Source: a virus (Duplodnaviria; Caudoviricetes). From it: a stretch of 64,000 bases of DNA. The first letter of the stretch is position 1. Each line of letters opens with the position of its first letter. The translations under genes and the position numbers were made by a program. The notes below the pieces were generated by a model, which was given only the letters and a program-made list of their open reading frames with translations, did not search any database and was not told where the DNA came from. The stretch lies in IMG/VR virus record IMGVR_UViG_3300025652_000041, positions 27,904-91,903 of that record, one strand, 5' to 3'. Shown here piece after piece: positions 1,187-49,033 of the stretch.

Positions 1187-1194
1187 TATAAATA
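1187..1194 (+). promoter_or_regulatory. T4-type late promoter
   Basis: Exact TATAAATA, intergenic, about 35 nt upstream of the 1229 ATG. Confidence 0.75.
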
Positions 1195-1228
1195 GAATCG
1201 TACATAATAACTATTTTTGGATTTATTC

Positions 1229-1804
1229 ATGAAACTACTTTATACCCTACTTATTGGTGTGATTTTAACTTCTTCGGCATATGCTCAAGAAAGTGTTATC
1301 GAAGACATTATAAAGACAGACTCTACAACTAATAGTACTGTTACCACAAAATCTGATTCGACAACTACTTTGAAGTCGCCTCCCCCTTCTGCTATTTCCC
1401 CCACGATTAATACGTCAAACTCTGACCTATGTACATTCGGTGTTGCGGGTGCAGTACAAACACAAATTCTTGGTATCTCTGCGGGTACACAGTTCACTGA
1501 TTATAATTGTGAGAAACTAAAGAATGCTAAGACTTTATACGATATGGGTATGAAAGTTGCAGCAGTATCAGTGATGTGTCAAGATAGACGCATATTTGAT
1601 GCAATGATGAACGCAGGAACACCATGTCCGTATGACGGTATGATCGGCGAAGAAGCTAAACTTGCATGGGAAGCAGAACTTGCCGCAGGTGGTTCACCCG
1701 AAGTGAAAAGTGATAAAGATAAAGAAAAGGAGATGACCACAAATGAGAAGACTCTTGCCGCTAGTGGTGGTATTGGCGCTCTGCTCCTCTTACTCTTACT
1801 CTGA
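1229..1804 (+). CDS. Exported Cys-containing protein with C-terminal hydrophobic anchor
   Basis: Signal peptide MKLLYTLLIGVILTSSAYA; 4 Cys; C-terminal GGIGALLLLLLL. Confidence 0.7.
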   Translation: MKLLYTLLIGVILTSSAYAQESVIEDIIKTDSTTNSTVTTKSDSTTTLKSPPPSAISPTINTSNSDLCTFGVAGAVQTQILGISAGTQFTDYNCEKLKNAKTLYDMGMKVAAVSVMCQDRRIFDAMMNAGTPCPYDGMIGEEAKLAWEAELAAGGSPEVKSDKDKEKEMTTNEKTLAASGGIGALLLLLLL

Positions 1805-2603
1805 GGTCATATCCGGTACAACTAGGAACGCAACCGACTTTGGTTATAATTGGGTGATGCGAAATATCTTGCCACAACAGGCAGGACTTGAAGTATCCAG
1901 TGTGTTGTACAGATATACTGCTATAAAGAATACCGAAGATGATATGGTCGTCTATGTCCAGAACGAAGATGCTGGCGGTGACGGTTACATCTTTCGAGAA
2001 GTGGATGATTGGTCTGGACGAAGATCGAACACTATTAATAAGATAGTTCCGGTAGACAATATACTGATAGACCGTTGGGGAGATGGTTCTATCGAATGGA
2101 CTGGAGAAGGTACTGTAGAAGACGCACGGGTGGTTTACAACTATAGGTACGACCCATGTTTCGATCCACAGACTAGTCCTGACTGTCCTGGCTATGTTGT
2201 ACCAATACCCGATATTCCTGAACCGGACTTGACTGCAATATACGAACAAGAACAAAGATTTATCAAGGAGGAAGCTGAGAAAAAGGCAGAACTTGATGAA
2301 GAGGAACAAAAGGAAAAGGATAGAAGGAGGGTTTCGATACAAAAGAATAGGGAACGTTTAGAAATCGCAATGGGTGCAGTTAACTCAGTGTTAATGAGTG
2401 CTGATGCACAACTAAAGCATGATCAGTTACTTGCGCTTGGTTTAATACCACCAGCATATATGAGAGATATATCTGGGGGAACATATGACGAAACAATTAC
2501 ATTAAAAGATGGTAAGTTACCAACTAATCCTAAAGGAAAAAGAGTTGGACTTGCTCAACAATTATTACATACAAAAATGATAAATAGTCAGTATAACAAC
2601 TAA
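1743..2603 (+). CDS. Exported protein (beta-rich N-domain, DPC..DCPGY motif, acidic coiled coil)
   Basis: Signal peptide MRRLLPLVVVLALCSSYSYS; AAGGAG SD upstream; overlaps the previous gene by 62 nt. Confidence 0.7.
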   Translation: MRRLLPLVVVLALCSSYSYSEVISGTTRNATDFGYNWVMRNILPQQAGLEVSSVLYRYTAIKNTEDDMVVYVQNEDAGGDGYIFREVDDWSGRRSNTINKIVPVDNILIDRWGDGSIEWTGEGTVEDARVVYNYRYDPCFDPQTSPDCPGYVVPIPDIPEPDLTAIYEQEQRFIKEEAEKKAELDEEEQKEKDRRRVSIQKNRERLEIAMGAVNSVLMSADAQLKHDQLLALGLIPPAYMRDISGGTYDETITLKDGKLPTNPKGKRVGLAQQLLHTKMINSQYNN

Positions 2604-2619
2604 TCTATAGGGGATAGTT

Positions 2620-3120
2620 ATGTTTAAACAAATTTTATTTGCCACGGTCGCATTAACTTCGACTGGCGTTATGGCATTTACAGAAGTGCCAATTACTGGT
2701 AACGTGGAGTCTAAGTGTGTTATCACTACCGACACGCCCGGAGTCTTTGGTAACCCTGTTAGCAATATTCTTAGTACTAAGTCGATAGATGGTGGGGTAG
2801 AACCTATCGTTCGATTCGATATCATTGAAGCTGGATCTTACAAGGCGGTTCTTTCGTATCCTATCGAGTTTACCACTTCACCGTATTTGAACGATGTTGT
2901 GAATTGGACAGGATTGGTTGATATTGCTGAAGTATCAGATACGTTGATGAATGACTTCGACAACACCAAAGTACTGTACAACAATGTTACAGAATATGAT
3001 TTGACTGTTGCTGGTAGTATATGGTTCAGATCAGAATCTCAAGCAGACTATGGTTATGGGAAATCATTTCCTGGCGGTGTCTACCGTGCCGCAGTCAGTG
3101 CTGAGTGTATAGCGCAATAA
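2620..3120 (+). CDS. Exported fimbrial/pilin-like subunit
   Basis: Signal peptide; N-terminal ITGNVESKCVI and C-terminal PGGVYRAAVSAEC resemble chaperone-usher pilin termini; about 147 aa mature. Confidence 0.55.
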   Translation: MFKQILFATVALTSTGVMAFTEVPITGNVESKCVITTDTPGVFGNPVSNILSTKSIDGGVEPIVRFDIIEAGSYKAVLSYPIEFTTSPYLNDVVNWTGLVDIAEVSDTLMNDFDNTKVLYNNVTEYDLTVAGSIWFRSESQADYGYGKSFPGGVYRAAVSAECIAQ

Positions 3121-3124
3121 TATC

Positions 3125-3499
3125 ATGCGTTATATTATGATGTTATTAGTCCTTATCGGTGGGTATGCGAATGCCCACCAATGGACACCCACGTACCCAA
3201 AACTGAAGTTATCTCATGTCTCTGGTATTATGAAAGTTGATATGGAACTCTTCAACAGCAGGCAGGATGTTGGTTGGTATGAAATATCCGTGTTCGATAA
3301 AGATTGGAATCCTGTAAAGTTTGCGGTAGGTGGTGAACGAATACTAAATGTTCCCTATCTAAAGAAACAAAAAGTGGAAGTGTATGTTAGATTTGGTGAT
3401 ACTAAACTCGTCAAATACATATGCAGTAAATCTAAGATAATAGCGGAAGATGAAAGAGTAACGGTGGTGTCATCGAGGATATGTTCGAAACTTAAATAG
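3125..3499 (+). CDS. Exported PapD-N-like fimbrial chaperone candidate
   Basis: Signal peptide ending ANA; beta-strand pattern ELFN..WYEISVFD..F..ILNV..VEVYV; adjacent to the pilin-like gene. Confidence 0.45.
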   Translation: MRYIMMLLVLIGGYANAHQWTPTYPKLKLSHVSGIMKVDMELFNSRQDVGWYEISVFDKDWNPVKFAVGGERILNVPYLKKQKVEVYVRFGDTKLVKYICSKSKIIAEDERVTVVSSRICSKLK

Positions 3500-3945
3500 T
3501 GAGTGATGTAGTGAGATATTTTATAGTGATTTTAACAATATTATGTGTGGGACAGGTTCATGGAGATTCTAGTGCTTTGAATCTATCATTACCACAATCC
3601 CCATCTAATTATGCTTCAGATCAAATTAGGGCTGGTGATATAGATTGTCGGAATGCAATTGGTTCTGCTACTAACGTAGAGTTCGGTGTTGTCGGTATAA
3701 TCAATCAAGATGATCCATTCAATACGATGGGCATTGACAGTAACCTATACAATAATGGTAGTGGTAAAATGAAAGATGTTGGTGTATATGCCAAGATCAC
3801 CATACCTATAGGTGCACCAAAAGAAAGAATCAACTGTAATACATTATACCAATTAGAACTTACTAAGAAAAGATTAGAAGTCCAGAAGTTACAAGCAGAG
3901 TTGGCGAATCTAAGAAAACTGAAATTCGAGGGTGATGAGAAATAA
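3499..3945 (+). CDS. Exported protein with Cys-bracketed amphipathic beta-hairpin and C-terminal coiled coil
   Basis: Signal peptide; strands NVEFGVVGII and VGVYAKITIPI between two Cys. Confidence 0.6.
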   Translation: MSDVVRYFIVILTILCVGQVHGDSSALNLSLPQSPSNYASDQIRAGDIDCRNAIGSATNVEFGVVGIINQDDPFNTMGIDSNLYNNGSGKMKDVGVYAKITIPIGAPKERINCNTLYQLELTKKRLEVQKLQAELANLRKLKFEGDEK

Positions 3946-4457
3946 TGTCAGAAGAAGAAGACAAAACAGAAATCGAATTTGGAGGAATGACCTTCAAAGG
4001 TGGTAGGATGTTCGCATTGATCACCGCTCTCTCTACACTTGGTGGTGCAGCCTGGGGTGGTTTTGAATTCTACAATGACTATCGTAATATGAAAGAGATT
4101 GTGGAGAACATTGACGTAGACGCTATCTCAGCACGTAACGATATTATCGAGACCAAACTAGACGAAGCAATAGAATATACCCGTGACATTAAGTCTGGTC
4201 TACGTGACGACATCATCTCTATCGAGAAACAAGCAGACCGTGTAGAGGACAATCTAAGAATTACCGAAACTGAAGTACGTGACATGATCGATAAAGCAAA
4301 TGATCGATTCGAAGACAAACGCAACCAACTACAAGAAAACTACGATACCCAACTCAACCGTCTACGTGACAAGAACGACCGAGAGTTAAAAGAACTCGAA
4401 GAACGTCTCACAGACCTAGTTCAAAAGGCATTGGATAACCCCCTGTCCGATAACTAA
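3945..4457 (+). CDS. Single-pass membrane coiled-coil protein
   Basis: TM segment FALITALSTLGGAAWGGF followed by long heptad repeats. Confidence 0.7.
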   Translation: MSEEEDKTEIEFGGMTFKGGRMFALITALSTLGGAAWGGFEFYNDYRNMKEIVENIDVDAISARNDIIETKLDEAIEYTRDIKSGLRDDIISIEKQADRVEDNLRITETEVRDMIDKANDRFEDKRNQLQENYDTQLNRLRDKNDRELKELEERLTDLVQKALDNPLSDN

Positions 4458-4507
4458 GTACACACCAATTCGCATATAAAGAGAATTTGTGTATACTTAA
4501 TCCCCCC

Positions 4508-4536
4508 TTGACATCCTCCCCTTACTGTGGTATACT
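4508..4536 (+). promoter_or_regulatory. sigma70-type promoter
   Basis: TTGACA-17 nt-TATACT. Confidence 0.6.
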
Positions 4537-4631
4537 AAGCCTTATCCAGTCGGGGAGGGTGATTATACCTTTCCGTTATATCAAACCCCATAAAAGTGTT
4601 AAAAAAGTCTAAAAGAATCAGCTGATAAGTG

Positions 4632-4660
4632 TTGACTTCTTGTTATGATTATGAGATAAT
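4632..4660 (+). promoter_or_regulatory. Early promoter cassette, copy 1
   Basis: TTGACT-TCTTGTTATGATTATGA-GATAAT followed by ATTGAGTTGAGAGG SD. Confidence 0.8.
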
Positions 4661-4691
4661 GGTTACCTAATTGAGTTGAGAGGTGTTTGTT

Positions 4692-4862
4692 ATGACTTTA
4701 TCTTTTGAATGTGTTACCCAAAACTTTCCATCAACAATTGGTATGGCGGTAGGTTCTACCGTTATCGTGCGGGACGTTCCCGCTTCATCTAACCCTAACG
4801 GGGTTGCCACTATTGAGGTCAAACGCCTCACTAATGAGTACTGCGATGTACAGGAGTTATAA
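4692..4862 (+). CDS. Small early protein (56 aa)
   Basis: ATG behind the cassette SD; translated manually, not in the ORF track. Confidence 0.6.
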   Translation: MTLSFECVTQNFPSTIGMAVGSTVIVRDVPASSNPNGVATIEVKRLTNEYCDVQEL

Positions 4863-4901
4863 AGACTTCGGTTCTTATACCAAAATGTTCTAAAGAAGGT
4901 G

Positions 4902-4930
4902 TTGACTTCTTGTTATGATTATGAGATAAT
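4902..4930 (+). promoter_or_regulatory. Early promoter cassette, copy 2
   Basis: Same 29-mer as copy 1. Confidence 0.8.
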
Positions 4931-6038: not shown

Positions 6039-6491
6039 GTGATGAAAATCCACATTGATCGATTCACCAGCAACAACCCAGAACTCACATTTGATGATGT
6101 GGTACAGAACATTCGTATGGGTGTTACTGATAAAGGAACCGTGAATGTTCATTTCGAGACCCGTGACAAATACATAGAGGTGGAAGCCAACGGTACAGTT
6201 GGTGGCCCAGACTATAAGGGCCAGACGATTCATCTTTCTCCTCATCTATGGATTATTGGGGATGGTGGCCTAGGACGACAGTTGGACGGGACGGATGATG
6301 AGTTTTACGATCATCCAAACTTTTGGAGCGCAACACTAATAGTTGACACGGAGGACAATAAATATTATACCAGTAGTGTGATTGCATTGAAGCACGAATA
6401 TTTTGTGAGTTATGTCCTCGACAGTGAAGTGATGAACCATGATTGCCTTGGTGAAGTTGAAATTATTGAATGGGTGGAGGAGAGTGAGTGA
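6039..6491 (+). CDS. Hypothetical protein
   Basis: GGAGG SD, 150 aa ORF. Confidence 0.6.
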   Translation: MMKIHIDRFTSNNPELTFDDVVQNIRMGVTDKGTVNVHFETRDKYIEVEANGTVGGPDYKGQTIHLSPHLWIIGDGGLGRQLDGTDDEFYDHPNFWSATLIVDTEDNKYYTSSVIALKHEYFVSYVLDSEVMNHDCLGEVEIIEWVEESE

Positions 6492-6548
6492 TGAGAAAAA
6501 GAGGTTATAAAGACCTCTTTTTTATAACAAAATAATCTAAGAAAACAG

Positions 6549-6577
6549 TTTACTTTTGCTCAATTCTATTATATAAT
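6549..6577 (+). promoter_or_regulatory. Early promoter cassette, divergent copy
   Basis: TTTACT-17-TATAAT with the upstream ATAACAAAAT..TCTAA element and downstream ATTGAGATGAGG. Confidence 0.6.
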
Positions 6578-6609
6578 TATTACATAAATTGAGATGAGGA
6601 GTAGAGATT

Positions 6610-6966
6610 ATGACTGAATCAAAATATGAAACCAAAACCACCGTGTTTGATCGTGAACATGCCGAGTATACCATGGTGAGTTTTGTTGATAAAGAAACTG
6701 GTGAGATCAGTCATTACGAACTCAACATCAAAGAAAAAGGCTCAACGGGTTTACTAAGCACTACTTGGAGGATGGTGGTTGACCATGGCAGTGACATTGT
6801 GGATATTATTCTCAACACTGAGAAGAAACTACAACTGATCAAACTGTTAGATGAGTTCACTCAAGAAATGGAAGGGCACAGTTACTACAGTAGCAATCCT
6901 GGCATCAGCACCGACGATTATGAAGATGTTGCTGATCGCATTCTGGAAAAATTCTTTTTGAAGTAG
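6610..6966 (+). CDS. Hypothetical early protein
   Basis: ORF behind promoter cassette. Confidence 0.6.
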   Translation: MTESKYETKTTVFDREHAEYTMVSFVDKETGEISHYELNIKEKGSTGLLSTTWRMVVDHGSDIVDIILNTEKKLQLIKLLDEFTQEMEGHSYYSSNPGISTDDYEDVADRILEKFFLK

Positions 6967-15964: not shown

Positions 15965-16002
15965 TGAATGGTGACTATTCGTGAAATGGATGACGATAGT
16001 TG

Positions 16003-16031
16003 TTGACTTCTTGTTTTGGTTATGAGATAAT
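16003..16031 (+). promoter_or_regulatory. Early promoter cassette copy
   Basis: TTGACT-17-GATAAT plus ATTGAGTTGAGAGG. Confidence 0.8.
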
Positions 16032-31649: not shown

Positions 31650-33632
31650 ATGAGAATAGATAAGAAGAAAGACGCTTTATTAGAAGATTATGCGATTGGT
31701 ATGTTGAAGGACTTTTACTTACAAGATGGTGAGAAGAGTCCACAAGAAGGTTTTTTACGTGCAGCGAAGGCTTGGTCAATCTACAAAGAAGAAATGGACG
31801 AAGACCTTGCAGAAAGACTTTATGGTTATGTTAGTAACAAGTGGTTTATGTATGCGTCTCCCGTTTTATCTAACGCACCTGTTGTTGGTAAGAAATCAAA
31901 GGCAATGCCTATCTCTTGTTTCCTTACCTATGTACCTGATACCCTAGAAGGATTGATCGAACACACCGCAGAACTGCGTTGGTTGTCGGTCATGGGGGGT
32001 GGTGTAGGGGGTCATTGGTCGGATGTCCGTACCGTGTCTGACGTTGCGCCTGGCCCTATGCCATTCATACATACCGTAGATGCTGACATGATTGCGTACC
32101 GTCAAGGTAAAACACGCAAAGGATCTTATGCTGCATATATGGATGTTTCGCACCCTGATATCATCGAGTTCCTGAACATGCGTATCCCTACGGGTGATGT
32201 ACAGCGTAAAGCATTGAACCTTCATAATGCAATTAATATCACCGATGAGTTCATGGAAGCAGTTAAGTCGAACAGTCAGTTCGATCTACGTGATCCAAAA
32301 GATAATGGGGTTAAAGAATCGATCAATGCACGTAAGTTATGGGAACGTATCTTAGAGACTCGATTCCGTACAGGTGAACCGTACTTGAACTTTATCGATA
32401 CTGCAAACCGTGATCTACCGCAACCACTGAAAGACTTGGGTCTCAAGATCAATGGTTCGAACTTATGTAATGAGATCCACCTTCCTACAAACGCAGATCG
32501 TACTGCGGTATGTTGTTTGTCGTCTTTGAATCTTGAATACTTTGATGACTGGAAAGATACTAACATTGTGGGTGATATCGTGCGAATGCTCGATAACGTC
32601 CTAGAATACTTTGTAGAGAATGCACCAGACTCGATCAGTCGTGCGAGATACAGTGCACAACGTGAACGATCTATTGGTTTGGGTGCGATGGGTTTCCATT
32701 CACTTCTCCAGAAACATGGAGTTGCATGGGAGTCTGATAAAGCACGTGAAATGAATGATGTTGTATTCTCACACATTAATATACAGGCAGTCGCAGAAAC
32801 ACAGAAACTGGCCCTAGAACGTGGCGAGTATCCTGATGGGTTTGGTTCGGGTAGACGTAACAGTCACTTGATTGCGATTGCACCTAATGCATCATCTGGT
32901 GTTATTTTGAGTACAAGTCCTTCTATCGAACCATTGAAGGCATGTGCATATACACATCGTACTCGTGCGGGTAGTTTCTTGGTTAAGAACAAATACCTTG
33001 ATCGACTACTTACCGAGAAGGGTCAGAACAACGAATCGAACTGGACTTCTATTATCACTAATAAAGGTTCGGTACAACATCTTCCGTTTTTGACCGAAGG
33101 TGAGAAGTCTATATTTAAGACCGCACAAGAGTTAGATCAGAACTGGGTAGTACAACACGCAGCTGATAGACAGAAGTATATCTGTCAGGGTCAGTCGGTG
33201 AACGTATTCTTCCCTGCTGGTGCACCTAAATCATACGTGAATAAGGTACATCTCAAGGCGTGGAAGGAAGGTCTTAAAGGTCTATACTATCTACGCACCG
33301 AGGCAAAGTCTCGTGCAGAGAATGTATCGGAGAAGGTAGAACGTGTTGCATTACAAGAAGATAGTCGCAGTATAGTATACGGTATTCCCAACTGTCCGTT
33401 CTGTGAACTTGCAAAGGAAGAATTGACCTTACGCGGTATTAATTATGACTATATCGATTTGAAAGAAATTGGTAAGTCTGCGGCTGAAGTGACTGGTCGT
33501 AGTGTTAAGACTGTTCCACAGATCTATATCCAAGGCAACTATGTCGGTGGTTACGAAGAACTGATGTTGTTCTTGGGTAATGCGGACTCACCAGCACAAG
33601 AAGATAATGAGTGTAGAGCTTGCGAAGGTTAG
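31650..33632 (+). CDS. nrdA: Ribonucleotide reductase class Ia alpha subunit with C-terminal glutaredoxin domain
   Basis: ISCF, SNLCNEI, IAPNASS, LYYLR; CPFC..TVPQI glutaredoxin; terminal CRAC. Confidence 0.95.
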   Translation: MRIDKKKDALLEDYAIGMLKDFYLQDGEKSPQEGFLRAAKAWSIYKEEMDEDLAERLYGYVSNKWFMYASPVLSNAPVVGKKSKAMPISCFLTYVPDTLEGLIEHTAELRWLSVMGGGVGGHWSDVRTVSDVAPGPMPFIHTVDADMIAYRQGKTRKGSYAAYMDVSHPDIIEFLNMRIPTGDVQRKALNLHNAINITDEFMEAVKSNSQFDLRDPKDNGVKESINARKLWERILETRFRTGEPYLNFIDTANRDLPQPLKDLGLKINGSNLCNEIHLPTNADRTAVCCLSSLNLEYFDDWKDTNIVGDIVRMLDNVLEYFVENAPDSISRARYSAQRERSIGLGAMGFHSLLQKHGVAWESDKAREMNDVVFSHINIQAVAETQKLALERGEYPDGFGSGRRNSHLIAIAPNASSGVILSTSPSIEPLKACAYTHRTRAGSFLVKNKYLDRLLTEKGQNNESNWTSIITNKGSVQHLPFLTEGEKSIFKTAQELDQNWVVQHAADRQKYICQGQSVNVFFPAGAPKSYVNKVHLKAWKEGLKGLYYLRTEAKSRAENVSEKVERVALQEDSRSIVYGIPNCPFCELAKEELTLRGINYDYIDLKEIGKSAAEVTGRSVKTVPQIYIQGNYVGGYEELMLFLGNADSPAQEDNECRACEG

Positions 33633-34408
33633 TAGTATTTGGAGATAGTTTTGTAGAAGGTTACAATGCCATGCCTGAAGTGAAAGTGACACGTTTCAAT
33701 ATGTGTCACTTTTTAGAAAGGGAACTTGGTGTAGAAGTTGTCAACTGCGGAAGGAGAGGGGCTGGCAACGCATCTATCGCAAACAAAATATTCAGATATA
33801 TACAGTCCAACGATATGACCAACACATCGATCTTGGTGGTTTGGTCTGGGGTAGATAGGTCTATGGAATTGAATCATGAGTATATAACTACTGATGACAA
33901 GTTCATGGACTTTGATTATCTCGACTATATAGTTGGTGGAACAAGACAGTTCGAGAAAGAAAGACTTGAACTTGAAGAGTATCGAAATATGTCTACACTA
34001 CGATTGCAGTCAGAAATCTCATACCATTCGGTAAGAATGATTTGCCAAGACTATGATGTACCTGTTATAATGACCAATAGTTTCGATAATACTCTGATCG
34101 AAAGGAAACGAATGTATCAGAAAAGAGTCCGAGACATTAATTTTATTCACGGTAAAATAAAAGACTGTTGGATAGAACCAGAACACTCCTCTAATACTTT
34201 ACTTGATATAATTATAGGTGAGTGGTTAGAAGAAATAGATGACAAACCAATGTGGATACCCCAAAGGGTAGAAAGAGCAAAACATATAATTAGGTCAGAC
34301 CCTAGTAAATATCCTAATATTACACTTTGTATTCACCCGTCTGATTCGGGTAATGAACTTATAGCAAAAACATTAACACCATATATACTACCAATATTAC
34401 AGGAATAA
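33620..34408 (+). CDS. SGNH/GDSL hydrolase-like protein
   Basis: VVFGDSF, GAGN and IHPS blocks. Confidence 0.7.
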   Translation: MRRLVVFGDSFVEGYNAMPEVKVTRFNMCHFLERELGVEVVNCGRRGAGNASIANKIFRYIQSNDMTNTSILVVWSGVDRSMELNHEYITTDDKFMDFDYLDYIVGGTRQFEKERLELEEYRNMSTLRLQSEISYHSVRMICQDYDVPVIMTNSFDNTLIERKRMYQKRVRDINFIHGKIKDCWIEPEHSSNTLLDIIIGEWLEEIDDKPMWIPQRVERAKHIIRSDPSKYPNITLCIHPSDSGNELIAKTLTPYILPILQE

Positions 34409-34410
34409 AA

Positions 34411-35406
34411 ATGGCACTACTAGATTTTTCGAAGACGTACAAACCCTTCCAATACCCATGGGCTGTAGAACTGACAAAGAAACACGAAGAGATTCACTGG
34501 GTTGAGGACGAGGCAGAACTGTCCGAAGATATTCAAGACTGGAGAACCAAACTCACCGAACAAGAGAAAGAGTTCATCACTCAGGTACTACGATTGTTCA
34601 CTCAGTCGGATGTGCAGGTAGGCGAGAACTATCACGAACTGTTGATCCCTAAGTTTAAGAACAATGAGATCCGTAACATGTTGTCATCCTTTGCAAACCG
34701 CGAAGGTGTACACCAACGTGCGTATGCATTGTTGAATGATACTCTGGGTCTGCCAGACGAAGAACACTCTGCCTTTATGGAATACAAAGAGATGGCAGAC
34801 AAGATTGACTTCATGAAAGAGGGTAACATCAACTCTCACACAGGTCTTGCACTTGTACTTGCACAGTCTGTATTCAATGAAGGTATGAGTCTGTTTGCAT
34901 CATTCGTAATGTTGTTGAACTTCCAACGTTTCGGTAAGATGAAAGGTATGGGTACAATCGTTGAGTGGTCTATTCGTGATGAGACTATGCACGTACAAGG
35001 TAATGCGAAGTTGTTCCGTGAGTTCTGTGAAGAACATCCACGTGTAGTAAACGATGAACTGAAGTCTAAAGTATACGAGATGGCAAAGAATGCTGTTAAG
35101 TTGGAAGATAGATTCATCAAACTTGCATATAAGTCCGGTACCATCGAAGGATTGACTGAAGCAGATGTTAAAGCATATATCCGTCATATCGCAGACAGAC
35201 GTTTGTTGCAACTTGGTATGAAGCCTAACTTCAAGGTCAAGGATAATCCACTCCCTTGGTTAGACTGGGTACTGAACGGTGCATCACATGACAACTTCTT
35301 TGAGAAACGTGTTACCGAATACTCTGTAAATGGTATGGATGGTGATTGGGATTGGGAAGAAGAACCACAGGTCTGTGGTCTAGACGGCGAGGGGTGCGCT
35401 GCATGA
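34411..35406 (+). CDS. nrdB: Ribonucleotide reductase beta subunit
   Basis: REGVHQRAY, EGMSLF, IRDETMH, NFFEKRVTEY. Confidence 0.95.
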   Translation: MALLDFSKTYKPFQYPWAVELTKKHEEIHWVEDEAELSEDIQDWRTKLTEQEKEFITQVLRLFTQSDVQVGENYHELLIPKFKNNEIRNMLSSFANREGVHQRAYALLNDTLGLPDEEHSAFMEYKEMADKIDFMKEGNINSHTGLALVLAQSVFNEGMSLFASFVMLLNFQRFGKMKGMGTIVEWSIRDETMHVQGNAKLFREFCEEHPRVVNDELKSKVYEMAKNAVKLEDRFIKLAYKSGTIEGLTEADVKAYIRHIADRRLLQLGMKPNFKVKDNPLPWLDWVLNGASHDNFFEKRVTEYSVNGMDGDWDWEEEPQVCGLDGEGCAA

Positions 35407-35549
35407 AATTAAGATATGAAAACATCTGTCCTATATGTGACATAGAAAGTACTATCATAGTACACTACGTTGACGATAGACCACAACACTGTCCTATGTG
35501 TGGTGAAGATGCGGAATTAGAACAGATTGAAGGAGTTGAAGAAGATTGA
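35403..35549 (+). CDS. Small zinc-ribbon protein
   Basis: CPIC...CPMCG. Confidence 0.65.
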   Translation: MKLRYENICPICDIESTIIVHYVDDRPQHCPMCGEDAELEQIEGVEED

Positions 35550-35887
35550 TTTCTACCTTCCTAAAATCCAAATTGCATATGGGAACCGTCACTGACTGTG
35601 AGTTATGGTATGACGGTTCTGTTGCTATTGATGAAGATTTGGTTGTTGCCGCAGGGATGCGGGAGTATGAACAAATTGATATCTATAACGCAACTAACGG
35701 AAAACGTTGGACTACTTACATAATACTTGCACCCAAGGGTTCGGGCACTATTTCCGTGAATGGGCCCGGTGCGCGTAATGCAATGGTGGGTGATCGTGTA
35801 GTTCTTTGTACATATGTATCTGTTGATGCGCACATGTTTACCCCCAATCAGATATATCTGAATACAGACAATACCATCATAAGTTAA
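35546..35887 (+). CDS. panD: Aspartate 1-decarboxylase (pyruvoyl-dependent)
   Basis: KSKLH, YDG/S self-cleavage site at residues 24-25, TTYII, NGPGA. Confidence 0.88.
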   Translation: MISTFLKSKLHMGTVTDCELWYDGSVAIDEDLVVAAGMREYEQIDIYNATNGKRWTTYIILAPKGSGTISVNGPGARNAMVGDRVVLCTYVSVDAHMFTPNQIYLNTDNTIIS

Positions 35888-35937
35888 GTGTCTTATATAT
35901 AAGTCATTAGACCCCTTAATGGCAGTTATATAAGACA

Positions 35938-36396
35938 ATGTGGTACATCAAGAATACAGAATACAATCCTACCGAAGACGAACTCAGCGAATACGTTGGG
36001 TTCGTTTATCTTATTACAGAACGTGATACCGGAAAGAAATATGTCGGTAAGAAGTTCTTCTGGTCTACTCGCAGACTACCACCATTAAAAGGTCAGAAAC
36101 GGAAACGCAAGGTTACCAAACAATCTGACTGGATGGACTACTATGGGTCATCCGAAGAACTCAAATTACTGGTAGAAAAGAAAGGTGGTGAAGCATACTA
36201 CCGAGAGATACTACACCTCTGCAAAACCAAAGGTGAGTGTTCCTACCTCGAAGCTAAAGAACAATTCGACCGTGACGTTCTGTTACGGGACGACTACTAC
36301 AATGCGTTTATTGGATGTAAGATTCACGCAAAGCACCTCCCCAAGACACTAGTCCAATCCGGACATCAAATAGAACCTTGGCACAATCGACCATAG
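35938..36396 (+). CDS. GIY-YIG-family nuclease
   Basis: GFVYLIT..KKYVGKK..YYGSS..YYN. Confidence 0.75.
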   Translation: MWYIKNTEYNPTEDELSEYVGFVYLITERDTGKKYVGKKFFWSTRRLPPLKGQKRKRKVTKQSDWMDYYGSSEELKLLVEKKGGEAYYREILHLCKTKGECSYLEAKEQFDRDVLLRDDYYNAFIGCKIHAKHLPKTLVQSGHQIEPWHNRP

Positions 36397-36433
36397 TTAT
36401 ACCCACTATTCATGAAATAAATGATAATAGTTG

Positions 36434-36462
36434 TTGACTTCTTGTTATGATTATGAGATAAT
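36434..36462 (+). promoter_or_regulatory. Early promoter cassette copy
   Basis: 29-mer identical to the copies at 4632 and 4902. Confidence 0.8.
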
Positions 36463-38763: not shown

Positions 38764-39447
38764 ATGCAAAAACCACAAACGTTAAAGATCGATCATCTTT
38801 TGACAGTCGATCCAATGACTACTGGCCAAGAACAAGTGTTCTCTGCCTACAAGTCTGGTTCGCACTTGGTACTGAATGGATCTGCGGGGACGGGTAAAAC
38901 TTTCAGTGCACTGTATCTTGGACTAGAGACTGTACTTGATAAAGGTAACCAGTTTTCATCTGTAGTTATCTGTAGGTCTATCGTACCTACCCGAGAGATT
39001 GGATTCTTGCCAGGAACTCTAGAAGAGAAGATGGATGCATATACCGCACCCTACAAATCAATATGCGCGGAACTATTCGATGATCCGGAAGCATACCGAA
39101 AACTTTCGGAGAACAAGACGGTTGATTTTATCTCAACGTCACATATTCGTGGAACTACAATCAACGATGCAGTTATCATAGTGGATGAGATGCAGAACTT
39201 GACATTCCATGAATTAGATAGTATCATTACTAGAGTTGGTCAGAATTGTCGGATCATATTCTGTGGTGATTATTATCAATCAGACTTCGTAAAAGAAGGT
39301 GATAGGAAAGGTATCGTGAAGTTTATCGAGATACTTGAGTTGATGAAGAACTTCACTGTAGTAGAATTTACATGGGCAGATATAGTACGTTCGGACTTCG
39401 TGCGAGACTATATAATGACTAAAGAACTAATAGAGGAAAAGAAATGA
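38764..39447 (+). CDS. phoH: PhoH-family ATPase
   Basis: GSAGTGKT, IGFLPG, IRGTT, DEMQN, CGD..QSD, DIVRS. Confidence 0.92.
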   Translation: MQKPQTLKIDHLLTVDPMTTGQEQVFSAYKSGSHLVLNGSAGTGKTFSALYLGLETVLDKGNQFSSVVICRSIVPTREIGFLPGTLEEKMDAYTAPYKSICAELFDDPEAYRKLSENKTVDFISTSHIRGTTINDAVIIVDEMQNLTFHELDSIITRVGQNCRIIFCGDYYQSDFVKEGDRKGIVKFIEILELMKNFTVVEFTWADIVRSDFVRDYIMTKELIEEKK

Positions 39448-39890
39448 ACAGACAAGAAGTATTCGAAACATTAAAAGTGGACGAAGGAGTCGAGTATGAA
39501 ATCTATAACGACCATCTTGGGTACGCAACATTTGGTGTCGGGCATCTCGTACTTGAAACTGACCCCGAACACGGACAACCGGTCGGAACCCCAATCAGTG
39601 AAGACAGAGTTGCCGAGTGTTTTGACAACGACCTCAATACAGCAATCAGCGAGTGTCATGCTTTATACGGACAGGGCGACTTTGATTCGTTACCAGACGG
39701 AGTACAAGGTGTACTTGTCAATATGATGTTCAACATGGGACGTACTCGTTTGAGTAAGTTCAAGAACTTCAATGGTGCAATTGCAGAAGGTGATTGGAAA
39801 CGTGCAGGTGTAGAGGGACGTGATAGTCTCTGGCATCGACAGGTTACAAACCGTGCAGAAAGACTAATGGTAACCTTAGAGAACGTATAA
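39444..39890 (+). CDS. Endolysin, T4-lysozyme (GH24) family
   Basis: DEG..YNDHLGYATFGVGH; NMMFNMG; W..Q..NRA. Confidence 0.88.
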   Translation: MNRQEVFETLKVDEGVEYEIYNDHLGYATFGVGHLVLETDPEHGQPVGTPISEDRVAECFDNDLNTAISECHALYGQGDFDSLPDGVQGVLVNMMFNMGRTRLSKFKNFNGAIAEGDWKRAGVEGRDSLWHRQVTNRAERLMVTLENV

Positions 39891-41700: not shown

Positions 41701-43197
41701 ATGCGTTACGTTGGTTTCAGTGAGTATTATCACGATGCAGCACTATCAATTATAAACAAGGACGGTACTGTGGAGTTCGCTTCACAGGCCGAACGTTTTT
41801 CTAAGAAGAAGAACGACCCTATCATTCCCGAAAGTCTCTGGGAATATGTTAACGACAACGATCATGTATCATTCTATGAAGACTATGCACTTCGAGAAAA
41901 ATACCGAGATACTTATCGAGGTTTAAAAGGCAAAACACTCCAAAGAGATGTTTCTTCACACGAAGAAATACCAATCGGTGAAAGTCTTGTCTATGACAAC
42001 TTCCACGAACATCACATATCACATTGCGCAACCGCATTCTACACCCGCCCTTGGAAAGACAAAGAAGATACTGTTATGGTGTCTATCGATGGTGCAGGCG
42101 AATATCAAACTGCGGTCATCTACGACCACAACTTCAACCTAATCAAAGAATGGCATTACCCCAAGTCTATAGGACTAGTCTACACTAGTGCAACAAAAAC
42201 GTTGGGTTTACGTCCACTTGAGGACGAGTATGTTGTTATGGGATTGTCATCATATGGTACCGCACCTCCAGAGATGGTACAATGGTTGATTGATTGGTGG
42301 GAAGATACTCCTGATGTTGCGACCGGAGTAGGTAAAGAGGTTTTACTAGATCATCCGGATAGTCCGGAGTATGTAGGATTTAAGAGGATGCGAAATAAAC
42401 TAATCGACTTCGCTAAACAGTACGGAGATAAAGATTTCGCAGCCGGTATTCAGAGGTTTTCAGAGTATGGTATTATGCAGATCATGCATATTGCAAAACA
42501 ACACGGAAACAAGTTAGTGTACTCTGGTGGTTGTGCACAGAATGTTGTTACCAATTCAATGATACACGAACTATTTGATGGTCAAATGCATATTGCAGTT
42601 GCACCTACAGATGCAGGATCTAGTCTTGGTACTGCCGCAATGACATGGGCAAAGGAAACAGGAAAGGATCGATTGATTTGGTCGCCCTATTCTGGTTACA
42701 ACATAGATAGAGAGGTAAACGTACAGGAAGTAGTCGATCACCTCTTAGAACACCGTGTGTGCGGTCTGGCGAACGGTAAAGCGGAGTTTGGCCCACGTGC
42801 ACTAGGTAACAGGTCTTTGATCGCAGATGTGAGGTATGACGTAAAGGATACGGTGAATGGTATCAAACGTAGACAGAAGTACCGACCATTCGCACCCGCA
42901 ATCCTAGAGGAACACGCACACGAGTACTTCGAAGGGCCTATGAATGAGTACATGCAATACACCTCTATAGCAAAACATCCTTATACGTCAGTCACTCATG
43001 TAGATGGTACTGCTCGTGTTCAGATAGTAAAGAAAGATTGTCCGTCTATATTCCGTAAGATTATCGAAGAATATTACGCAAGGACGGGCGTTCCGATGTT
43101 ACTAAATACCTCATTGAACATCCGCGGCCGTCCGATGGTCAACGATGAACATGACGCAGAATTGTGGGAACAAAAGTACGGAGTGAAGGTTTTTTAA
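41701..43197 (+). CDS. O-carbamoyltransferase (NodU/CmcH family)
   Basis: YHDAA, ERFSKKK, HHISH, DGAGE, SGGCAQN, EFGPRALGNRS, RPFAP, LLNTSLN. Confidence 0.92.
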   Translation: MRYVGFSEYYHDAALSIINKDGTVEFASQAERFSKKKNDPIIPESLWEYVNDNDHVSFYEDYALREKYRDTYRGLKGKTLQRDVSSHEEIPIGESLVYDNFHEHHISHCATAFYTRPWKDKEDTVMVSIDGAGEYQTAVIYDHNFNLIKEWHYPKSIGLVYTSATKTLGLRPLEDEYVVMGLSSYGTAPPEMVQWLIDWWEDTPDVATGVGKEVLLDHPDSPEYVGFKRMRNKLIDFAKQYGDKDFAAGIQRFSEYGIMQIMHIAKQHGNKLVYSGGCAQNVVTNSMIHELFDGQMHIAVAPTDAGSSLGTAAMTWAKETGKDRLIWSPYSGYNIDREVNVQEVVDHLLEHRVCGLANGKAEFGPRALGNRSLIADVRYDVKDTVNGIKRRQKYRPFAPAILEEHAHEYFEGPMNEYMQYTSIAKHPYTSVTHVDGTARVQIVKKDCPSIFRKIIEEYYARTGVPMLLNTSLNIRGRPMVNDEHDAELWEQKYGVKVF

Positions 43198-43697
43198 TGC
43201 AGTACATACGCAAATATAAAATTGATGATTGGGAAAGTGTTCAGGACAAGATATTACTTGCTATCGAAATGATAAAAGATAACAACGTATGTGAATATGC
43301 TAACATGTCTCATTCTGATTACAAGGTTGATGCAAAACCTTTGTATTGGGAAGTATTCGAGAATGCTGTTCGGCCAAGTCTAGAGGAATATATGTCTAGT
43401 TGGAAGTGTACCGACATACGCATAGGTAATATGTGGTTTGCAGAATATAGTGAACATGGTGCAGACTTCAACTGGCACACCCATGAAGGTGCGAATATGT
43501 CCGGTGTCCTTCAAGTAGTATTAGAAGATCCGGAAAACGGAACACAATTATTAGGAACACCAATAGATTTGGAAGAAGGGGATCTTGTAGTATTCCCTTC
43601 GATGTTACCCCACAGAAGTCCTATGATAACCGACAGTAAGAAACTTGTTATCGGTTTTAATTGGGACATACATGGTAGTGAATTACACGAACATTAA
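43197..43697 (+). CDS. Putative 2OG-Fe(II) oxygenase
   Basis: WHTH..SGV..EGDLVVFPSMLPH. Confidence 0.75.
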   Translation: MQYIRKYKIDDWESVQDKILLAIEMIKDNNVCEYANMSHSDYKVDAKPLYWEVFENAVRPSLEEYMSSWKCTDIRIGNMWFAEYSEHGADFNWHTHEGANMSGVLQVVLEDPENGTQLLGTPIDLEEGDLVVFPSMLPHRSPMITDSKKLVIGFNWDIHGSELHEH

Positions 43698-43711
43698 ACT
43701 AGGAGAATAAA

Positions 43712-44065
43712 ATGTCAGAAGAAAAAAAGAAGGTACAACTTACCGCAGACAGTGATGGGTTTTTAGCGGGAGCTGATGCGGACGGTGATGGTCACATTAC
43801 CGAACAAGAACTACAGATGCACTTAGAGTTCAAACGAAAGGAACTCGAAGACGCAGATGCTATGCGAGATGCGCAAAGAAACATGGCCTGGTTTGCACTT
43901 GGCGGAATGTTACTTTATCCCTTCGCTGTAGTACTGGCATCTTTGATAGGATTAGACCAAGCAGCAAATACGTTAGGTTCTATGGCACCGACATACTTTG
44001 TATCTGTTGCCGCAATTGTCGCAGCGTTCTATGCGAAGGAAGCTGTCGGTAACAAGAATAAGTAA
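43712..44065 (+). CDS. Two-TM membrane protein with EF-hand-like loop (holin candidate)
   Basis: DADGDGHITEQE plus two hydrophobic helices. Confidence 0.6.
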   Translation: MSEEKKKVQLTADSDGFLAGADADGDGHITEQELQMHLEFKRKELEDADAMRDAQRNMAWFALGGMLLYPFAVVLASLIGLDQAANTLGSMAPTYFVSVAAIVAAFYAKEAVGNKNK

Positions 44066-44955
44066 TGGAACTTATTACTTGGCGAGGTACGCCAGGAGTT
44101 GGTGATTTCATGTGGGCACTTAATTGTGCCCATAACTTTTCTTACAAAGAAAACAAGAAAGTTACTTTAGAGTTTCATTGGGAACATGAAGAAGACCATC
44201 TACACCACTTCGAAGATCCAGAAACAATCATAGAGAGACTAGAGTACATCCATAACTTCTATCATAGAAAGGATGATGTGACGGTCATACACGTGTATAA
44301 TGAACGGACACGTTACAGTGATTGGAGATATAACGATGATGTTACCAGAGAGGACGATGGTAGTCTCAGAGTCATGGCCATAAGCCGACCCAAAAAGAAT
44401 AGGTTTTGGTTTGAGAGTGGAAAGTATTCGGATGAGGTAGGCGGAGATATTCCCAACAGTGATTGGATATTCCGGAAGGATGCATTCCGAAAAATTGACA
44501 ATAATAAGATTGTTATATGGAGACCGCTGTTTAATGCAGAAACTCCAAAAACATGGAAAAGACAGTTGACAAATGACAAATGGGATGTTATAATAAATCA
44601 GTTGGTTGCGGCGGGATTACATATAACAGAATTGACCTATAGAACTCCTGTTTCCGAAGCACTCTATCATATCTCTACATGTCGTCAAGTCATATGTTAT
44701 GATGGTATGTGGCATTACATTGCTCGTAACTTATATAGACCTACGATAGTTATAAGTAATGAGGGTATAACGCGTTATCATACGCCTCATTGTGTACGAA
44801 CTACACACGATGAAAATGAAGAAATGAATATATTTTGGTGGGTGAATAATATCCCTGAGATGTTAGGTAACACCAAGAGAAAAGCAATAGAACATGAAAC
44901 TAAAGCGAGAGGATTTTTCAGTGAAAGAAATAAACATAGACAGAGCAGTAATTGA
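44065..44955 (+). CDS. Putative GT-B glycosyltransferase (GT9-like)
   Basis: GVGDF N-terminus; ICYDGMWHYIA resembles the GT9 C-terminal motif. Confidence 0.5.
   Translation: MELITWRGTPGVGDFMWALNCAHNFSYKENKKVTLEFHWEHEEDHLHHFEDPETIIERLEYIHNFYHRKDDVTVIHVYNERTRYSDWRYNDDVTREDDGSLRVMAISRPKKNRFWFESGKYSDEVGGDIPNSDWIFRKDAFRKIDNNKIVIWRPLFNAETPKTWKRQLTNDKWDVIINQLVAAGLHITELTYRTPVSEALYHISTCRQVICYDGMWHYIARNLYRPTIVISNEGITRYHTPHCVRTTHDENEEMNIFWWVNNIPEMLGNTKRKAIEHETKARGFFSERNKHRQSSN
44566..44594 (+). promoter_or_regulatory. Intragenic consensus sigma70 promoter
   Basis: TTGACA-17-TATAAT with extended TG. Confidence 0.6.
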
Positions 44956-45901
44956 AGTACAGGGCGGCTGTAATTTTGATTGCACAATGTGTCCTCAAGA
45001 TAAACGTACCGGAGGTAGACACAAAGGTTTCTTAACCAAGATGTCACTGATCGAGTTCGAAGATAATGTTCAAGACTGTGCACGACATGGACTGAACGTT
45101 GTCAACCTAGATGGTTCGGGTGAAGCAACCATGAATCGTAACCTACCAGAATATATAAAAATCGTTAAGAGGTATGATGCAAAAGCAGTCATCTTCTCTA
45201 ATGGTTTTCGTATGCATGGTCAATTCATGAAGGACTGTGTGGACGCAGGATTGGACTTCTTCCGATTCTCTTTCGTTGGTTCTACACCAGAGAAGTATCA
45301 AGAGTGGATGAATAACACTCGGGGTAGCACTTATGAGTTGATAAAGAAACATGTAAAAGAAATGATGGATTATGTAAAGGAGTCTGGGTCGGATTGTGTT
45401 GTGGAGACATACCACCTGATTACAGACAATGATAATATTGAACAAGAACTAGAACAGTACAAGGCCTTAGTAGAAGAACTTGGTTGTAAGACCGAGATCT
45501 GGAAAATGCACAACTGGTCTGGTGCATATGATATAGGTGAAACAAATGCTAGAACTGGTAATGTCAAAACTTGTGGTCGTCCTTTTTCTCCTGACGTTGT
45601 TATCCGTGCTGGTGGGGTGGATGGTCATCGGGGTGCAGTTCATCCGTGCTGTCAAGTACTTGGTCGGGATGAAGAAGCAGTTCTCGGACATACATCCGTC
45701 AATACGATAGAAGAAATTATTCGAGGTGAAGAGTACTCTGCATTACGCGAGTCTCATAGAACTGGAGAATACACGGATTATTGTAGAGATTGTGATTTTC
45801 TACTTGACACTCCGGAGACATTGGTGTATACTAATAACTCAAGATCAGAAATGAAAATGATTGGAACTTCTTTCGATCTTAATGATTATAGGAACGTTTA
45901 G
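44921..45901 (+). CDS. Radical SAM protein with SPASM/twitch domain
   Basis: CNFDCTMC; C-terminal CGRPF..PCC..CRDC; start at GTG 44921 or ATG 44894. Confidence 0.88.
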   Translation: MKEINIDRAVIEVQGGCNFDCTMCPQDKRTGGRHKGFLTKMSLIEFEDNVQDCARHGLNVVNLDGSGEATMNRNLPEYIKIVKRYDAKAVIFSNGFRMHGQFMKDCVDAGLDFFRFSFVGSTPEKYQEWMNNTRGSTYELIKKHVKEMMDYVKESGSDCVVETYHLITDNDNIEQELEQYKALVEELGCKTEIWKMHNWSGAYDIGETNARTGNVKTCGRPFSPDVVIRAGGVDGHRGAVHPCCQVLGRDEEAVLGHTSVNTIEEIIRGEEYSALRESHRTGEYTDYCRDCDFLLDTPETLVYTNNSRSEMKMIGTSFDLNDYRNV

Positions 45902-46499
45902 TTTGAATGACTCTAAACCACCAGTGTGGATGATCGTGATGAGTGGGAATCCCATTTCCGATTACTATAGAAAACTTGCATTACCTTCTTGGTTGAAAGC
46001 TGGGTTCGATGTTAATTTTTTCGAAGGTGTTACACCCGAGACTTACAAAGATCATTTTGATTTGCTCTTTGGGAACAAACATAGTAAAAGCACTCCGGAT
46101 GGTGTAATGTTCACTGTCTCTGAAAAGTGTGTGTGGTACGGTCATTACTATCTTTGGAAAAAATGTATTGATACTGACACTCCTATGATAGTGTGTGAAC
46201 ATGATATTGAATTGGTTATGGATATTCAACCTTCAATATACACTACACCTATGGCGTGTTTGGCTCACGATCCTCCGGACATACGCAAAGAGAAACGTAC
46301 ATCTCTTGCGGGTGGTGCATATTATATAACACCAGATGTTGCAAAGGTGTTAATAAGAATAAACGAGGATCGTATTAGAATCAACTCTGATGGTTGGGTC
46401 TGGGAAGTGTGTAAGGCGCATGGATACTTTCATTATGACAAGTGTTCACATATAAAAGATTATTCTGTCGGATTTACGACCAAACATAACAAGAGTTAA
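45861..46499 (+). CDS. Glycosyltransferase family 25-like
   Basis: H..LWKKC..IVCEHD..AYYITP; start uncertain. Confidence 0.7.
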   Translation: MELLSILMIIGTFSLNDSKPPVWMIVMSGNPISDYYRKLALPSWLKAGFDVNFFEGVTPETYKDHFDLLFGNKHSKSTPDGVMFTVSEKCVWYGHYYLWKKCIDTDTPMIVCEHDIELVMDIQPSIYTTPMACLAHDPPDIRKEKRTSLAGGAYYITPDVAKVLIRINEDRIRINSDGWVWEVCKAHGYFHYDKCSHIKDYSVGFTTKHNKS

Positions 46500-46502
46500 A
46501 CA

Positions 46503-46691
46503 ATGTATAACATAACATTCAAACACTATCGTACTGGCGTTGAACTCACCTTGACTGGGTACCCAATGGATGACTATAATAAACGCAAAGATTCTGAGAT
46601 GTTCATATTCTATGATACTCTCAATGAACGAATCGAAGCCATTATAAGGTCATCCATTGTGTCCATGTTGGCATATGAGGATGAGTTGTGA
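46503..46691 (+). CDS. Hypothetical protein
   Basis: Tiled ORF. Confidence 0.5.
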   Translation: MYNITFKHYRTGVELTLTGYPMDDYNKRKDSEMFIFYDTLNERIEAIIRSSIVSMLAYEDEL

Positions 46692-48758: not shown

Positions 48759-48763
48759 TTTGA

Positions 48764-49033
48764 ATGAAAGTTTTACACGATAATGTTTTATTGACAGAAG
48801 ATGATGCAAAAGAAACAACTACTGCCGGTGGACTGATTCTTTCCGCAGATATTACGACAGGTAATAAACCTGCTCGTGTTGTTGCGATGGGACTAGAAGT
48901 TGCAAATAAGAAAGAGATTGCAGCAGGTGATAAGGTATATTGTAATTGGTCAGAAGCAATGCCAGTAGAGATTGATGGTAAGAAGATGGCGATTATTAAG
49001 TACGAATTTATCCGGTTGAAAGTGGACGGATAA
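48764..49033 (+). CDS. groES: Co-chaperonin GroES-like (functional analogue of T4 gp31)
   Basis: LHDNVL..ETTTAGGLIL..VVAMG..GDKV. Confidence 0.85.
   Translation: MKVLHDNVLLTEDDAKETTTAGGLILSADITTGNKPARVVAMGLEVANKKEIAAGDKVYCNWSEAMPVEIDGKKMAIIKYEFIRLKVDG

Follow-up and report, generated by a model that had tools for sequence, protein, structure and literature searches.

Chaperone-usher systems (PapD-PapK/G, FimC-FimH/A, SafB-SafA, Caf1M-Caf1 and CsuC-CsuA/B) make use of donor-strand complementation, the hallmark of which is a parallel chaperone strand lying between the first and last strands of the subunit. Phage spanins are of a two-component (lambda Rz/Rz1) or a unimolecular (T1 gp11) type. 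A curli CsgG/CsgF cluster of debated role is known from Pelagibacter and OM43 myophages and from HTVC023P-type podophages (PMC7029224, PMC9599517, PMC9004378). Here, we analysed a set of six genes (hereafter referred to as g1 to g6, or the cassette) occupying positions 1229-4457, as closely packed open reading frames (ORFs) on the plus strand, of a 64,000-nucleotide stretch of DNA (hereafter referred to as the window; positions 27,904 to 91,903 of the IMG/VR virus record IMGVR_UViG_3300025652_000041). The record, 91.9 kb long with an estimated completeness of 54%, is from an uncultured, aquatic, T4-like phage. The cassette resembles each of the systems above in part, but in its entirety the module matches no described system; no description of it was found in open-access papers and preprints, and it seems to be undescribed. 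The reading that we favour, tentatively and with less than even confidence, is that it encodes a periplasmic complex, as yet undescribed, that is anchored in the inner membrane and acts late, probably around lysis.

The curli cluster (type VIII secretion, with CsgG, CsgF and CsgA/B-like proteins) is likewise a multi-gene exported set; its carriers are marine T4-like and podo-type phages with hosts that do not have it, and the possibilities debated for its role are those considered here for the cassette, namely aggregation, superinfection and lysis timing (PMC7029224, PMC9599517, PMC9004378). The genes are nevertheless different, and curli has a known outer-membrane channel, whereas none was found for the cassette. 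No match to CsgG or CsgF was obtained for g1-g6 or for the 101 other ORFs of the window (E ≤ 1e-5), and CsgG (PF03783) was not found in any of five cassette-bearing records (54-89% complete). Identity with the published Pelagibacter-phage cluster was therefore rejected. Similarly, no usher match was found in g1-g6, and the usher family (PF00577) was absent from the same five records at E ≤ 0.01, with a positive E. coli control.

A conserved phage module with predicted export signals

Together, g1-g6 make up a single conserved module, confined to phages, far beyond what chance would produce. A scan seeded with g3 identified 44 loci, 36 of which contained g1-g6 in order, the remaining eight being cut by a contig end. 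The scan seeded with the g4 alignment yielded at least 558 IMG/VR stretches with g4 relatives; among the 80 loci retained, 67 had all six genes in order and 13 were cut by a contig end. With both scans pooled (seven contigs shared), 97 of the 117 distinct viral contigs carried the full set and the remaining 20 were cut by contig ends, and no gene was missing from any locus with room for all six. The relatives displayed 37-100% identity to the window cassette, and the overlap between g1 and g2 was conserved (62-74 bases, 50 in one locus). The synteny expected by an earlier interpretation of this DNA, made without database searches (hereafter referred to as the sequence-only reading), was thus observed in both scans.

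The cassette is very common in water phages: relatives of g1 formed at least 8000 clusters (90% identity) in metagenomes, all with E ≤ 0.001. A tblastn search with g3 against the phages collection gave no match. The bacterial search with g1 returned 24 contigs (L050-L073) with 45-69% identity, all from metagenome bins of scattered taxa (metagenome-assembled genomes of Melainabacteria, Opitutales, Actinomycetota, Bacteroidota and the archaeal Methanobacteriota). A cellular source of g1 was considered and dropped, because all 24 contigs are most simply read as phage contigs mis-binned into metagenome genomes.

N-termini resembling signal peptides were found in most of the distinct homologues of five products (g1, 23/24; g2, 24/27; g3, 25/30; g4, 28/28; g5, 25/25), by a crude hydropathy and small-residue rule made for this analysis rather than with a trained predictor. 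The sequence-only reading had described six tightly coupled genes following the motif TATAAATA, with five exported products; the ORFs, their junctions and the motif are present as described, and the N-termini agree with this proposal. In the mechanism that we propose, g1-g5 would be exported via Sec-type signal peptides. Invariant cysteine residues were identified in g1 (C68, C94, C117 and C133), g3 (C33 and C163), g4 (C100 and C120) and g5 (C50 and C113), and g2 has one invariant (C148) and one nearly invariant (C139) cysteine.

The g1 product consists of a signal peptide, a Thr/Ser-rich stretch, a PPP linker, a four-Cys domain, a charged linker and a C-terminal hydrophobic tail. The four-Cys core (residues 55-147) is extremely conserved, and all 24 homologues have the tail, with nothing after it. 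As this hydrophobic tail ends the protein, g1 should remain in the inner membrane, to which the tail would tether it. A GlyGly-CTERM-type sorting signal was also considered for the tail and dropped, there being no NCBIfam match and no basic cluster. The g6 product has a short N-terminal part, an anchor at about residues 22-40, a coiled coil of about 120 residues and an invariant C-terminal N165-P166-L167. Its anchor, overlooked in the sequence-only reading, as was the g1 tail, is weakly hydrophobic (mean Kyte-Doolittle value of 1.36 over 19 residues) and rich in Gly, Ala, Ser and Thr, and g6 has no signal peptidase-type end. This weak anchor may have the character of the signal-anchor-release domains of phage lysis proteins; it would hold g6 in place, with the long coiled coil reaching into the periplasm. 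Matches for g6 were weak and of the coiled-coil type (EzrA, apolipoprotein and others).

The g2 product comprises a signal peptide, a conserved N-domain of about 150 residues containing the two cysteines, an acidic variable linker and a conserved LAQQxLHxxMVxSQY end, and in g5 the signal peptide is followed by a beta-rich segment bracketed by cysteines (C50 to C113) and, at the C-terminus, a charged helix. ESM Atlas contained only viral hypothetical clusters for g5 and a single row for g2, at 0.75, which was not usable. No family library names any cassette protein: none of g1-g6 scored above a curated cut-off in Pfam or NCBIfam, and the PHROG matches of the six proteins (20531, 25455 and 37374) are all of unknown function, with g1 matching PHROG 20531 (E 2.1e-15) and g5 matching PHROG 37374 (E 8.2e-5). 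Profile searches of PDB sequences with the alignments of g1, g2, g3, g4 and g5 gave nothing below E 0.1.

The fold of g4 and its predicted complex with g3

The g4 product has a signal peptide followed by one PapD-like beta-sandwich domain of about 107 mature residues, beginning at the invariant His18. The AlphaFold2 model has a predicted local distance difference test score (pLDDT) of 88.2. Foldseek searches with this model returned almost exclusively chaperones of chaperone-usher systems, with E-values from 8.7e-5 (DraB) to about 2e-3; PapD, SafB, Caf1M, CsuC, FaeE and FimC were among the approximately 30 chaperone rows obtained besides DraB. VIA-align, an aligner not dependent on Foldseek, was used to search 48,161 chains with g4, and ranked SafB (Z 10.4, root mean square deviation 3.4, 104 aligned), FimC (10.3), YadV (9.7), CfaA (9.7) and PapD (9.3), with eukaryotic major sperm protein domains, which have the same fold, tied with the chaperones to within one unit (Z 9.1-9.6). 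In these model-based comparisons, the fold of g4 is that of the N-domain of the chaperones, the subunit-binding domain, in agreement with the one-domain PapD-type chaperone that the sequence-only reading had seen in this product.

At the sequence level, g4 had no PapD_N or PapD_C Pfam match at E ≤ 1, and one of 13 distant relatives had a sub-threshold PapD_N match (E 0.0096, 16.3 bits versus a cut-off of 23). The family has 168 representatives among 1.84 billion proteins; as the 150 listed have lengths of at most 181 residues, no two-domain form of the family was found. The g4 model matched only uncharacterised phage proteins in BFVD.

The g3 product has a signal peptide, an invariant N-terminal segment (G27, V29, S31, K32, C33 and V34), a beta sandwich and a C-terminal strand containing C163. 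The N-terminal segment is the most conserved part of the protein. The model has a pLDDT of 78.7, with values under 50 for residues 1-30. The best structural rows for g3 were MSCRAMM/DEv-IgG and carbohydrate-binding sandwiches, with Z ≤ 7.7, the level of common beta-sandwich arrangements. Pilins were absent from the 50 best VIA-align rows and, in Foldseek, gave weak matches only (PapG pilin domain, E 6.4e-3; PapA, E 1.0e-2; FimG, E 1.4e-2), so that the pilin-like character attributed to g3 in the sequence-only reading was not clearly recovered. MSCRAMM N2/N3 domains bind their partners by strand addition at the edge of a sheet, and those of SdrD, SdrG, ClfB and FnBPA gave the best g3 rows (Z 6.5-7.7, 104-123 residues aligned). 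Nevertheless, a Z below 8 is in the common beta-sandwich range, MSCRAMMs are Gram-positive wall proteins and there is no sequence relation to g3.

The multimer check called for by the sequence-only reading predicted binding of g4 to g3 through edge strands. The interaction prediction score from aligned errors (ipSAE) was 0.75, as the median of three runs (0.70, 0.75 and 0.76), and the best of three controls was 0.00; both partners had a pLDDT of at least 88, and at least 95% of the contacts agreed between runs. The docking mark was reached by 116 of 157 solved pairs and two of 215 mismatched pairs. Residues 116-121 of g4 are predicted to pair with residues 160-165 of g3 and, as the offset is constant, the last strands of the two proteins would be parallel. 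Predicted contacts also link g4 residues 117 and 119 to g3 residues 35 and 33, respectively, and g4 residues 18-19, including the invariant His18, to g3 residue 34. In this model, g4 is predicted to clamp its own first and last strands onto those of g3.

The cassette thus shares with chaperone-usher systems the chaperone N-domain fold of g4 and the export of both partners, which have disulfide-type Cys pairs. The predicted placement of the g4 last strand parallel to the g3 last strand, and of the g4 first strand beside the g3 first strand, would match the geometry of donor-strand complementation. It differs in having no usher in the five records, a one-domain g4 with no PapD_N or PapD_C match, and a client, g3, that ranks with generic Ig-like folds rather than with pilins. 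Furthermore, four other conserved genes of the cassette have no counterpart in those systems, and the carriers are lytic-type phages. For a virus, the g4-g3 pair would be the first case of strand complementation of the chaperone type and, moreover, one without an usher.

Gene neighbourhood and possible functions

Flanking genes were annotated for 12 diverse loci (112 of the 138 flanking ORFs were scanned). An endolysin or lysozyme PHROG lay no more than 3.6 kb from the cassette in seven of these loci, and tail-fibre genes lay directly upstream from it in six. In five loci from smaller phages that are not T4-like (L033, L038, L040, L044 and L045), tail-fibre genes were followed by the cassette, two-transmembrane (two-TM) holin-like proteins and endolysin. 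A two-TM protein was present in 27 of the 80 g4-seeded loci, and no spanin or holin PHROG was found among 16 neighbouring small membrane proteins. The window also encodes a two-TM protein (43712-44062, 117 residues, 4 kb past the lysozyme gene) with 54% identity to the protein encoded two genes ahead of the endolysin in L044; this window protein is a candidate holin, and its N-terminal part includes an acidic stretch resembling a calcium-binding loop.

The g1 core was identified in 13 cultured or deposited phage records, including six of Pelagibacter phages (five podophages and the myophage Mosig), those of Roseobacter phages CRP-207 and CRP-810 and two of Ralstonia phage RSP15. Pelagibacter phage HTVC115P has g1 (E 9e-41) and g6 (E 1e-25) without g3-g5, and CRP-810 has homologues of g1 and of g6 (gp51; hhalign, 93%). 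As cultured phages carry g1 and g6 without g3-g5, the six-gene set looks, from these sequence comparisons, like a g1/g6 core with a g3-g4-g5 addition. Two further candidates were set aside: the large gp53 of HTVC115P as a g2 homologue (weakly supported only, 39.7% over 31 columns) and a 132-residue protein of Mosig with a transmembrane segment and a coiled coil as a g6 homologue (unsupported; hhalign, 2.3%). In CRP-810 (locus L048), gp51 (6198-6620) was deposited as a “lysozyme” and has no lysozyme domain. The g1 homologue of this phage is directly preceded by a gene for a transmembrane coiled-coil protein and, immediately after that gene, an unannotated ORF (4594-4854) for an 86-residue lipoprotein with an LLSAC lipobox, in the layout of a spanin pair; this lipoprotein is 42% identical to residues 91-126 of g1.

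There are several points of likeness to spanins. The architecture of g6, and this alone, is that of an i-spanin, with an N-terminal anchor, a periplasmic coiled coil and a conserved C-terminal end, and g1, with a signal sequence and a C-terminal membrane anchor, resembles a unimolecular spanin. In addition, the cassette lies beside holin-like and endolysin genes in the smaller phages, and a sub-domain of g1 occurs within the lipoprotein at the o-spanin position of CRP-810. By contrast, the cassette has no conserved lipobox and no spanin family match, consists of six genes rather than one or two, and is far from the lysozyme gene in this window.

These features are consistent with the favoured reading of a late-acting periplasmic complex. 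In the periplasm, g4 would cap the first and last strands of g3 by strand complementation, in the manner of a pilus chaperone N-domain on its subunit, with no usher or other outer-membrane channel involved. The proteins would assemble into a complex anchored in the inner membrane and working inside the envelope. This complex would be active as infection ends and would be linked to lysis, through the breaching of the outer membrane or cell wall or the timing of lysis, and no fimbria would be built on the cell surface. A lysis role, if true, would bear on the way in which phages of small-celled marine and freshwater bacteria cross the outer membrane, as spanins are mostly unrecognised in these phages. 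A more specific version, which we consider improbable, extends the donor-strand principle without an usher: g4 would hold g3 open until a late cue freed it, and g3 would then join, via its N-terminal segment, to g3 or to g5/g2, forming a strut or lattice that would reach from the g1/g6 anchors to the outer membrane and tear or fuse the envelope. If true, this would be a third outer-membrane-breaching device, beside spanins and disruptin peptides, in some of the most abundant water phages.

Several observations weigh against this periplasmic, lysis-linked complex. A lysozyme-like match was found within 5 kb in only seven of the 80 g4-seeded loci, and in the window the lysozyme gene (39444-39887) is 35 kb from the cassette, the two-TM protein also being far away. 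The lysis link is therefore suggestive, not firm. Unrelated accessory genes are, moreover, classically found at sites of this kind, next to tail-fibre and lysis genes. None of the spanin, holin or lysis families of PHROG, Pfam or NCBIfam was matched by g1-g6. A lipobox-like pattern (crude and made for this analysis, not a trained predictor) was never conserved, occurring in 0/24 homologues of g1, 4/27 of g2, 7/30 of g3, 5/28 of g4, 1/25 of g5 and 0/27 of g6; nothing in the cassette, therefore, obviously reaches the outer membrane. According to the warning given for the tool, the docking of g4 with g3 may reflect the model's memory of solved chaperone-subunit complexes, and the invariant C33 and C163 of g3 lie, in the model, on two strands kept apart by the g4 strand, which is unexplained.

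The late-type motif and the presence of the cassette in RNA libraries count for this complex, with reservations. The TATAAATA motif is only weakly enriched in the window (nine copies versus 4.2 expected, a number reached in five of 100 shuffles) and was kept in only eight of 26 distinct upstream regions of relatives, and loci L022 and L030/L031 carry sigma-70-like sites of the TTGACA...TATAAT type and no late motif. The stretch of DNA with the cassette was present in 10 RNA-library runs from 10 studies, seven of which contained at least half the sampled words, and contigs from four runs covered the cassette (one, for example, from 1543 to 4500, with four differences); such contigs give no levels or ends, and may derive from carried-over DNA.

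An alternative that we judge rather unlikely is superinfection exclusion or receptor masking, in which the exported proteins, located in the periplasm or on envelope proteins of the infected cell, would block the DNA entry or adsorption of other phages or keep progeny off debris. Phage periplasmic or membrane exclusion proteins, such as T4 Imm, T4 Sp and T5 Llp, provide precedents; all the cassette products are envelope-directed, the cassette adjoins tail-fibre genes in half of the 12 annotated loci (6/12) and the window phage also has lipopolysaccharide (LPS) glycosyltransferase genes. However, known systems of this type consist of one or two mostly early genes, whereas the window has a late-type motif, and the presence of six genes in a fixed order in distant phage types argues for a machine. 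Library scans revealed no sequence link between cassette proteins and exclusion families.

The sequence-only reading had gone further in another direction, proposing that the g1 and g5 products form an outer-membrane pore replacing the usher and that a fibre is built on the surface of infected cells. In such a scheme, g4 would hand over g3, which would polymerise by donor-strand exchange via its N-terminal segment and exit through a g1/g5 pore or a host channel, causing cell aggregation or blocking superinfection. The PapD-like fold of g4 and its predicted parallel strand complementation of g3 are in keeping with this scheme, as is the low model confidence of the conserved g3 N-terminal segment in the monomer, as would be expected of a donor strand. 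Pelagibacter phages with an exported curli CsgG/CsgF system are, moreover, already known (PMC7029224, PMC9599517). Against it, an usher or CsgG was found in none of the five records, g3 ranks with generic Ig-like sandwiches rather than pilins, g1 is C-terminally membrane-anchored and no barrel appeared in any result. The two supposed hairpin proteins, g1 and g5, are unrelated: their treatment as paralogues was dropped, as hhalign gave 19%, with the signal peptides alone aligned. The neighbourhood in the smaller phages, between tail-fibre and holin-like or endolysin genes, does not point to a surface fibre either. With no usher or CsgG, no conserved lipobox and g1 and g5 unrelated, the proposed pore and fibre are unsupported, and we consider this scheme improbable. 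A surface structure, if present, would be a second phage-made fibre system beside the debated Pelagibacter-phage curli cluster. The sequence-only interpretation was thus partly right: export, the unit and a chaperone-like g4, predicted to bind g3, all hold.

A role in periplasmic metal or nutrient handling is highly unlikely. In this reading, the invariant histidine at the start of mature g4 would make up a copper site on a cupredoxin-like sandwich, of the amino-terminal kind present in the CopC, YcnI and PmoB families. In 23 of 23 aligned sequences, His18 comes immediately after the site of predicted cleavage, and the weaker fold rows for g4 include the AmoB cupredoxin domain (Z 7.8) and a Cu(I) metallochaperone (Z 7.5). 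Nevertheless, these rows are 2-3 Z units below the chaperones, g4 has no second invariant His, His18 lies inside the predicted g3 interface and there is no CopC or YcnI family match. Finally, we give almost no weight to the possibility that small phage genes with no relation to one another have come together by chance: all six lack a known function and some cultured phages have g1 and g6 but not g3-g5, but the same order with tight or overlapping junctions recurs in 97 of 117 contigs at 37-100% identity, with no gene missing where there is room.

Cassette layout and window context

Coordinates of the cassette genes and of promoter-like features in the window
Feature	Position	Strand	Remarks
Late-promoter-like motif TATAAATA, T4-type	1187-1194	+	34 bases 5' of g1 ATG
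g1	1229-1804	+	ATG start; TTG at 1217 also open; 3' end overlaps g2 start
g2	1743-2603	+	ORF
g3	2620-3120	+	ORF; predicted g4 client
g4	3125-3499	+	ORF, 124 residues
g5	3499-3945	+	GTG start overlapping g4 stop; alternative GTG 3511
g6	3945-4457	+	ORF
Sigma-70-like promoter, downstream boundary	4508-4536	+	TTGACA, 17 bases, TATACT; 11/12 matches
32-base promoter-like repeat	4629-4660, 4899-4930, 16000-16031, 36431-36462	+	Four window copies, 0-3 mismatches

The junctions between successive genes, from g1 to g6, measure -62, +16, +4, -1 and -1 bases. The alternative, in-frame GTG of g5, giving an N-terminus beginning MRYF, fits the starts of the relatives better and is the form present in ESM Atlas. 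Sigma-70-like promoters begin at 4508, 4632 and 4902, the latter two within 32-base repeats; as these promoters directly follow g6, the cassette is at the end of its own transcription unit. The repeat carries a sigma-70-like promoter (TTGACT, 17 bases, GATAAT), zero copies would be expected by chance, and its copies are probably a family of early promoters. In three runs, RNA-library contigs stop near 4460-4500, with the following contigs beginning at the 32-base repeats. No transcript ends were drawn from these contigs, because two exact 32-base repeats alone can break an assembly.

The gene directly upstream from the cassette (435-1115) encodes a 226-residue product with a VMVDADMF motif, judged by eye to be of the glycosyltransferase DxD type. 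It is co-linear with the cassette in the closest relatives only (L002-L009) and lies outside the unit.

The T4-like marks in the window are a gp32-type single-stranded DNA-binding protein, a T4 baseplate protein, ribonucleotide reductase (RNR), PhoH and a tape-measure-like gene. The nearest relative of the gp32 protein is from “Phage C48C1” (71%), followed by Synechococcus phages (53%). A block of host-surface-type genes at 41701-49684 encodes a Nol-like carbamoyltransferase, a radical SAM/SPASM protein and GT25 and GT8 glycosyltransferases, and is similar to the LPS-modification genes reported in Pelagibacter myophages. In the region 31650-36393, the RNR large subunit has a glutaredoxin domain at its C-terminus and the two RNR genes are separated by a GDSL-like ORF; the region also contains a gene for aspartate decarboxylase (PanD), followed by one for a segE-type GIY-YIG homing endonuclease.

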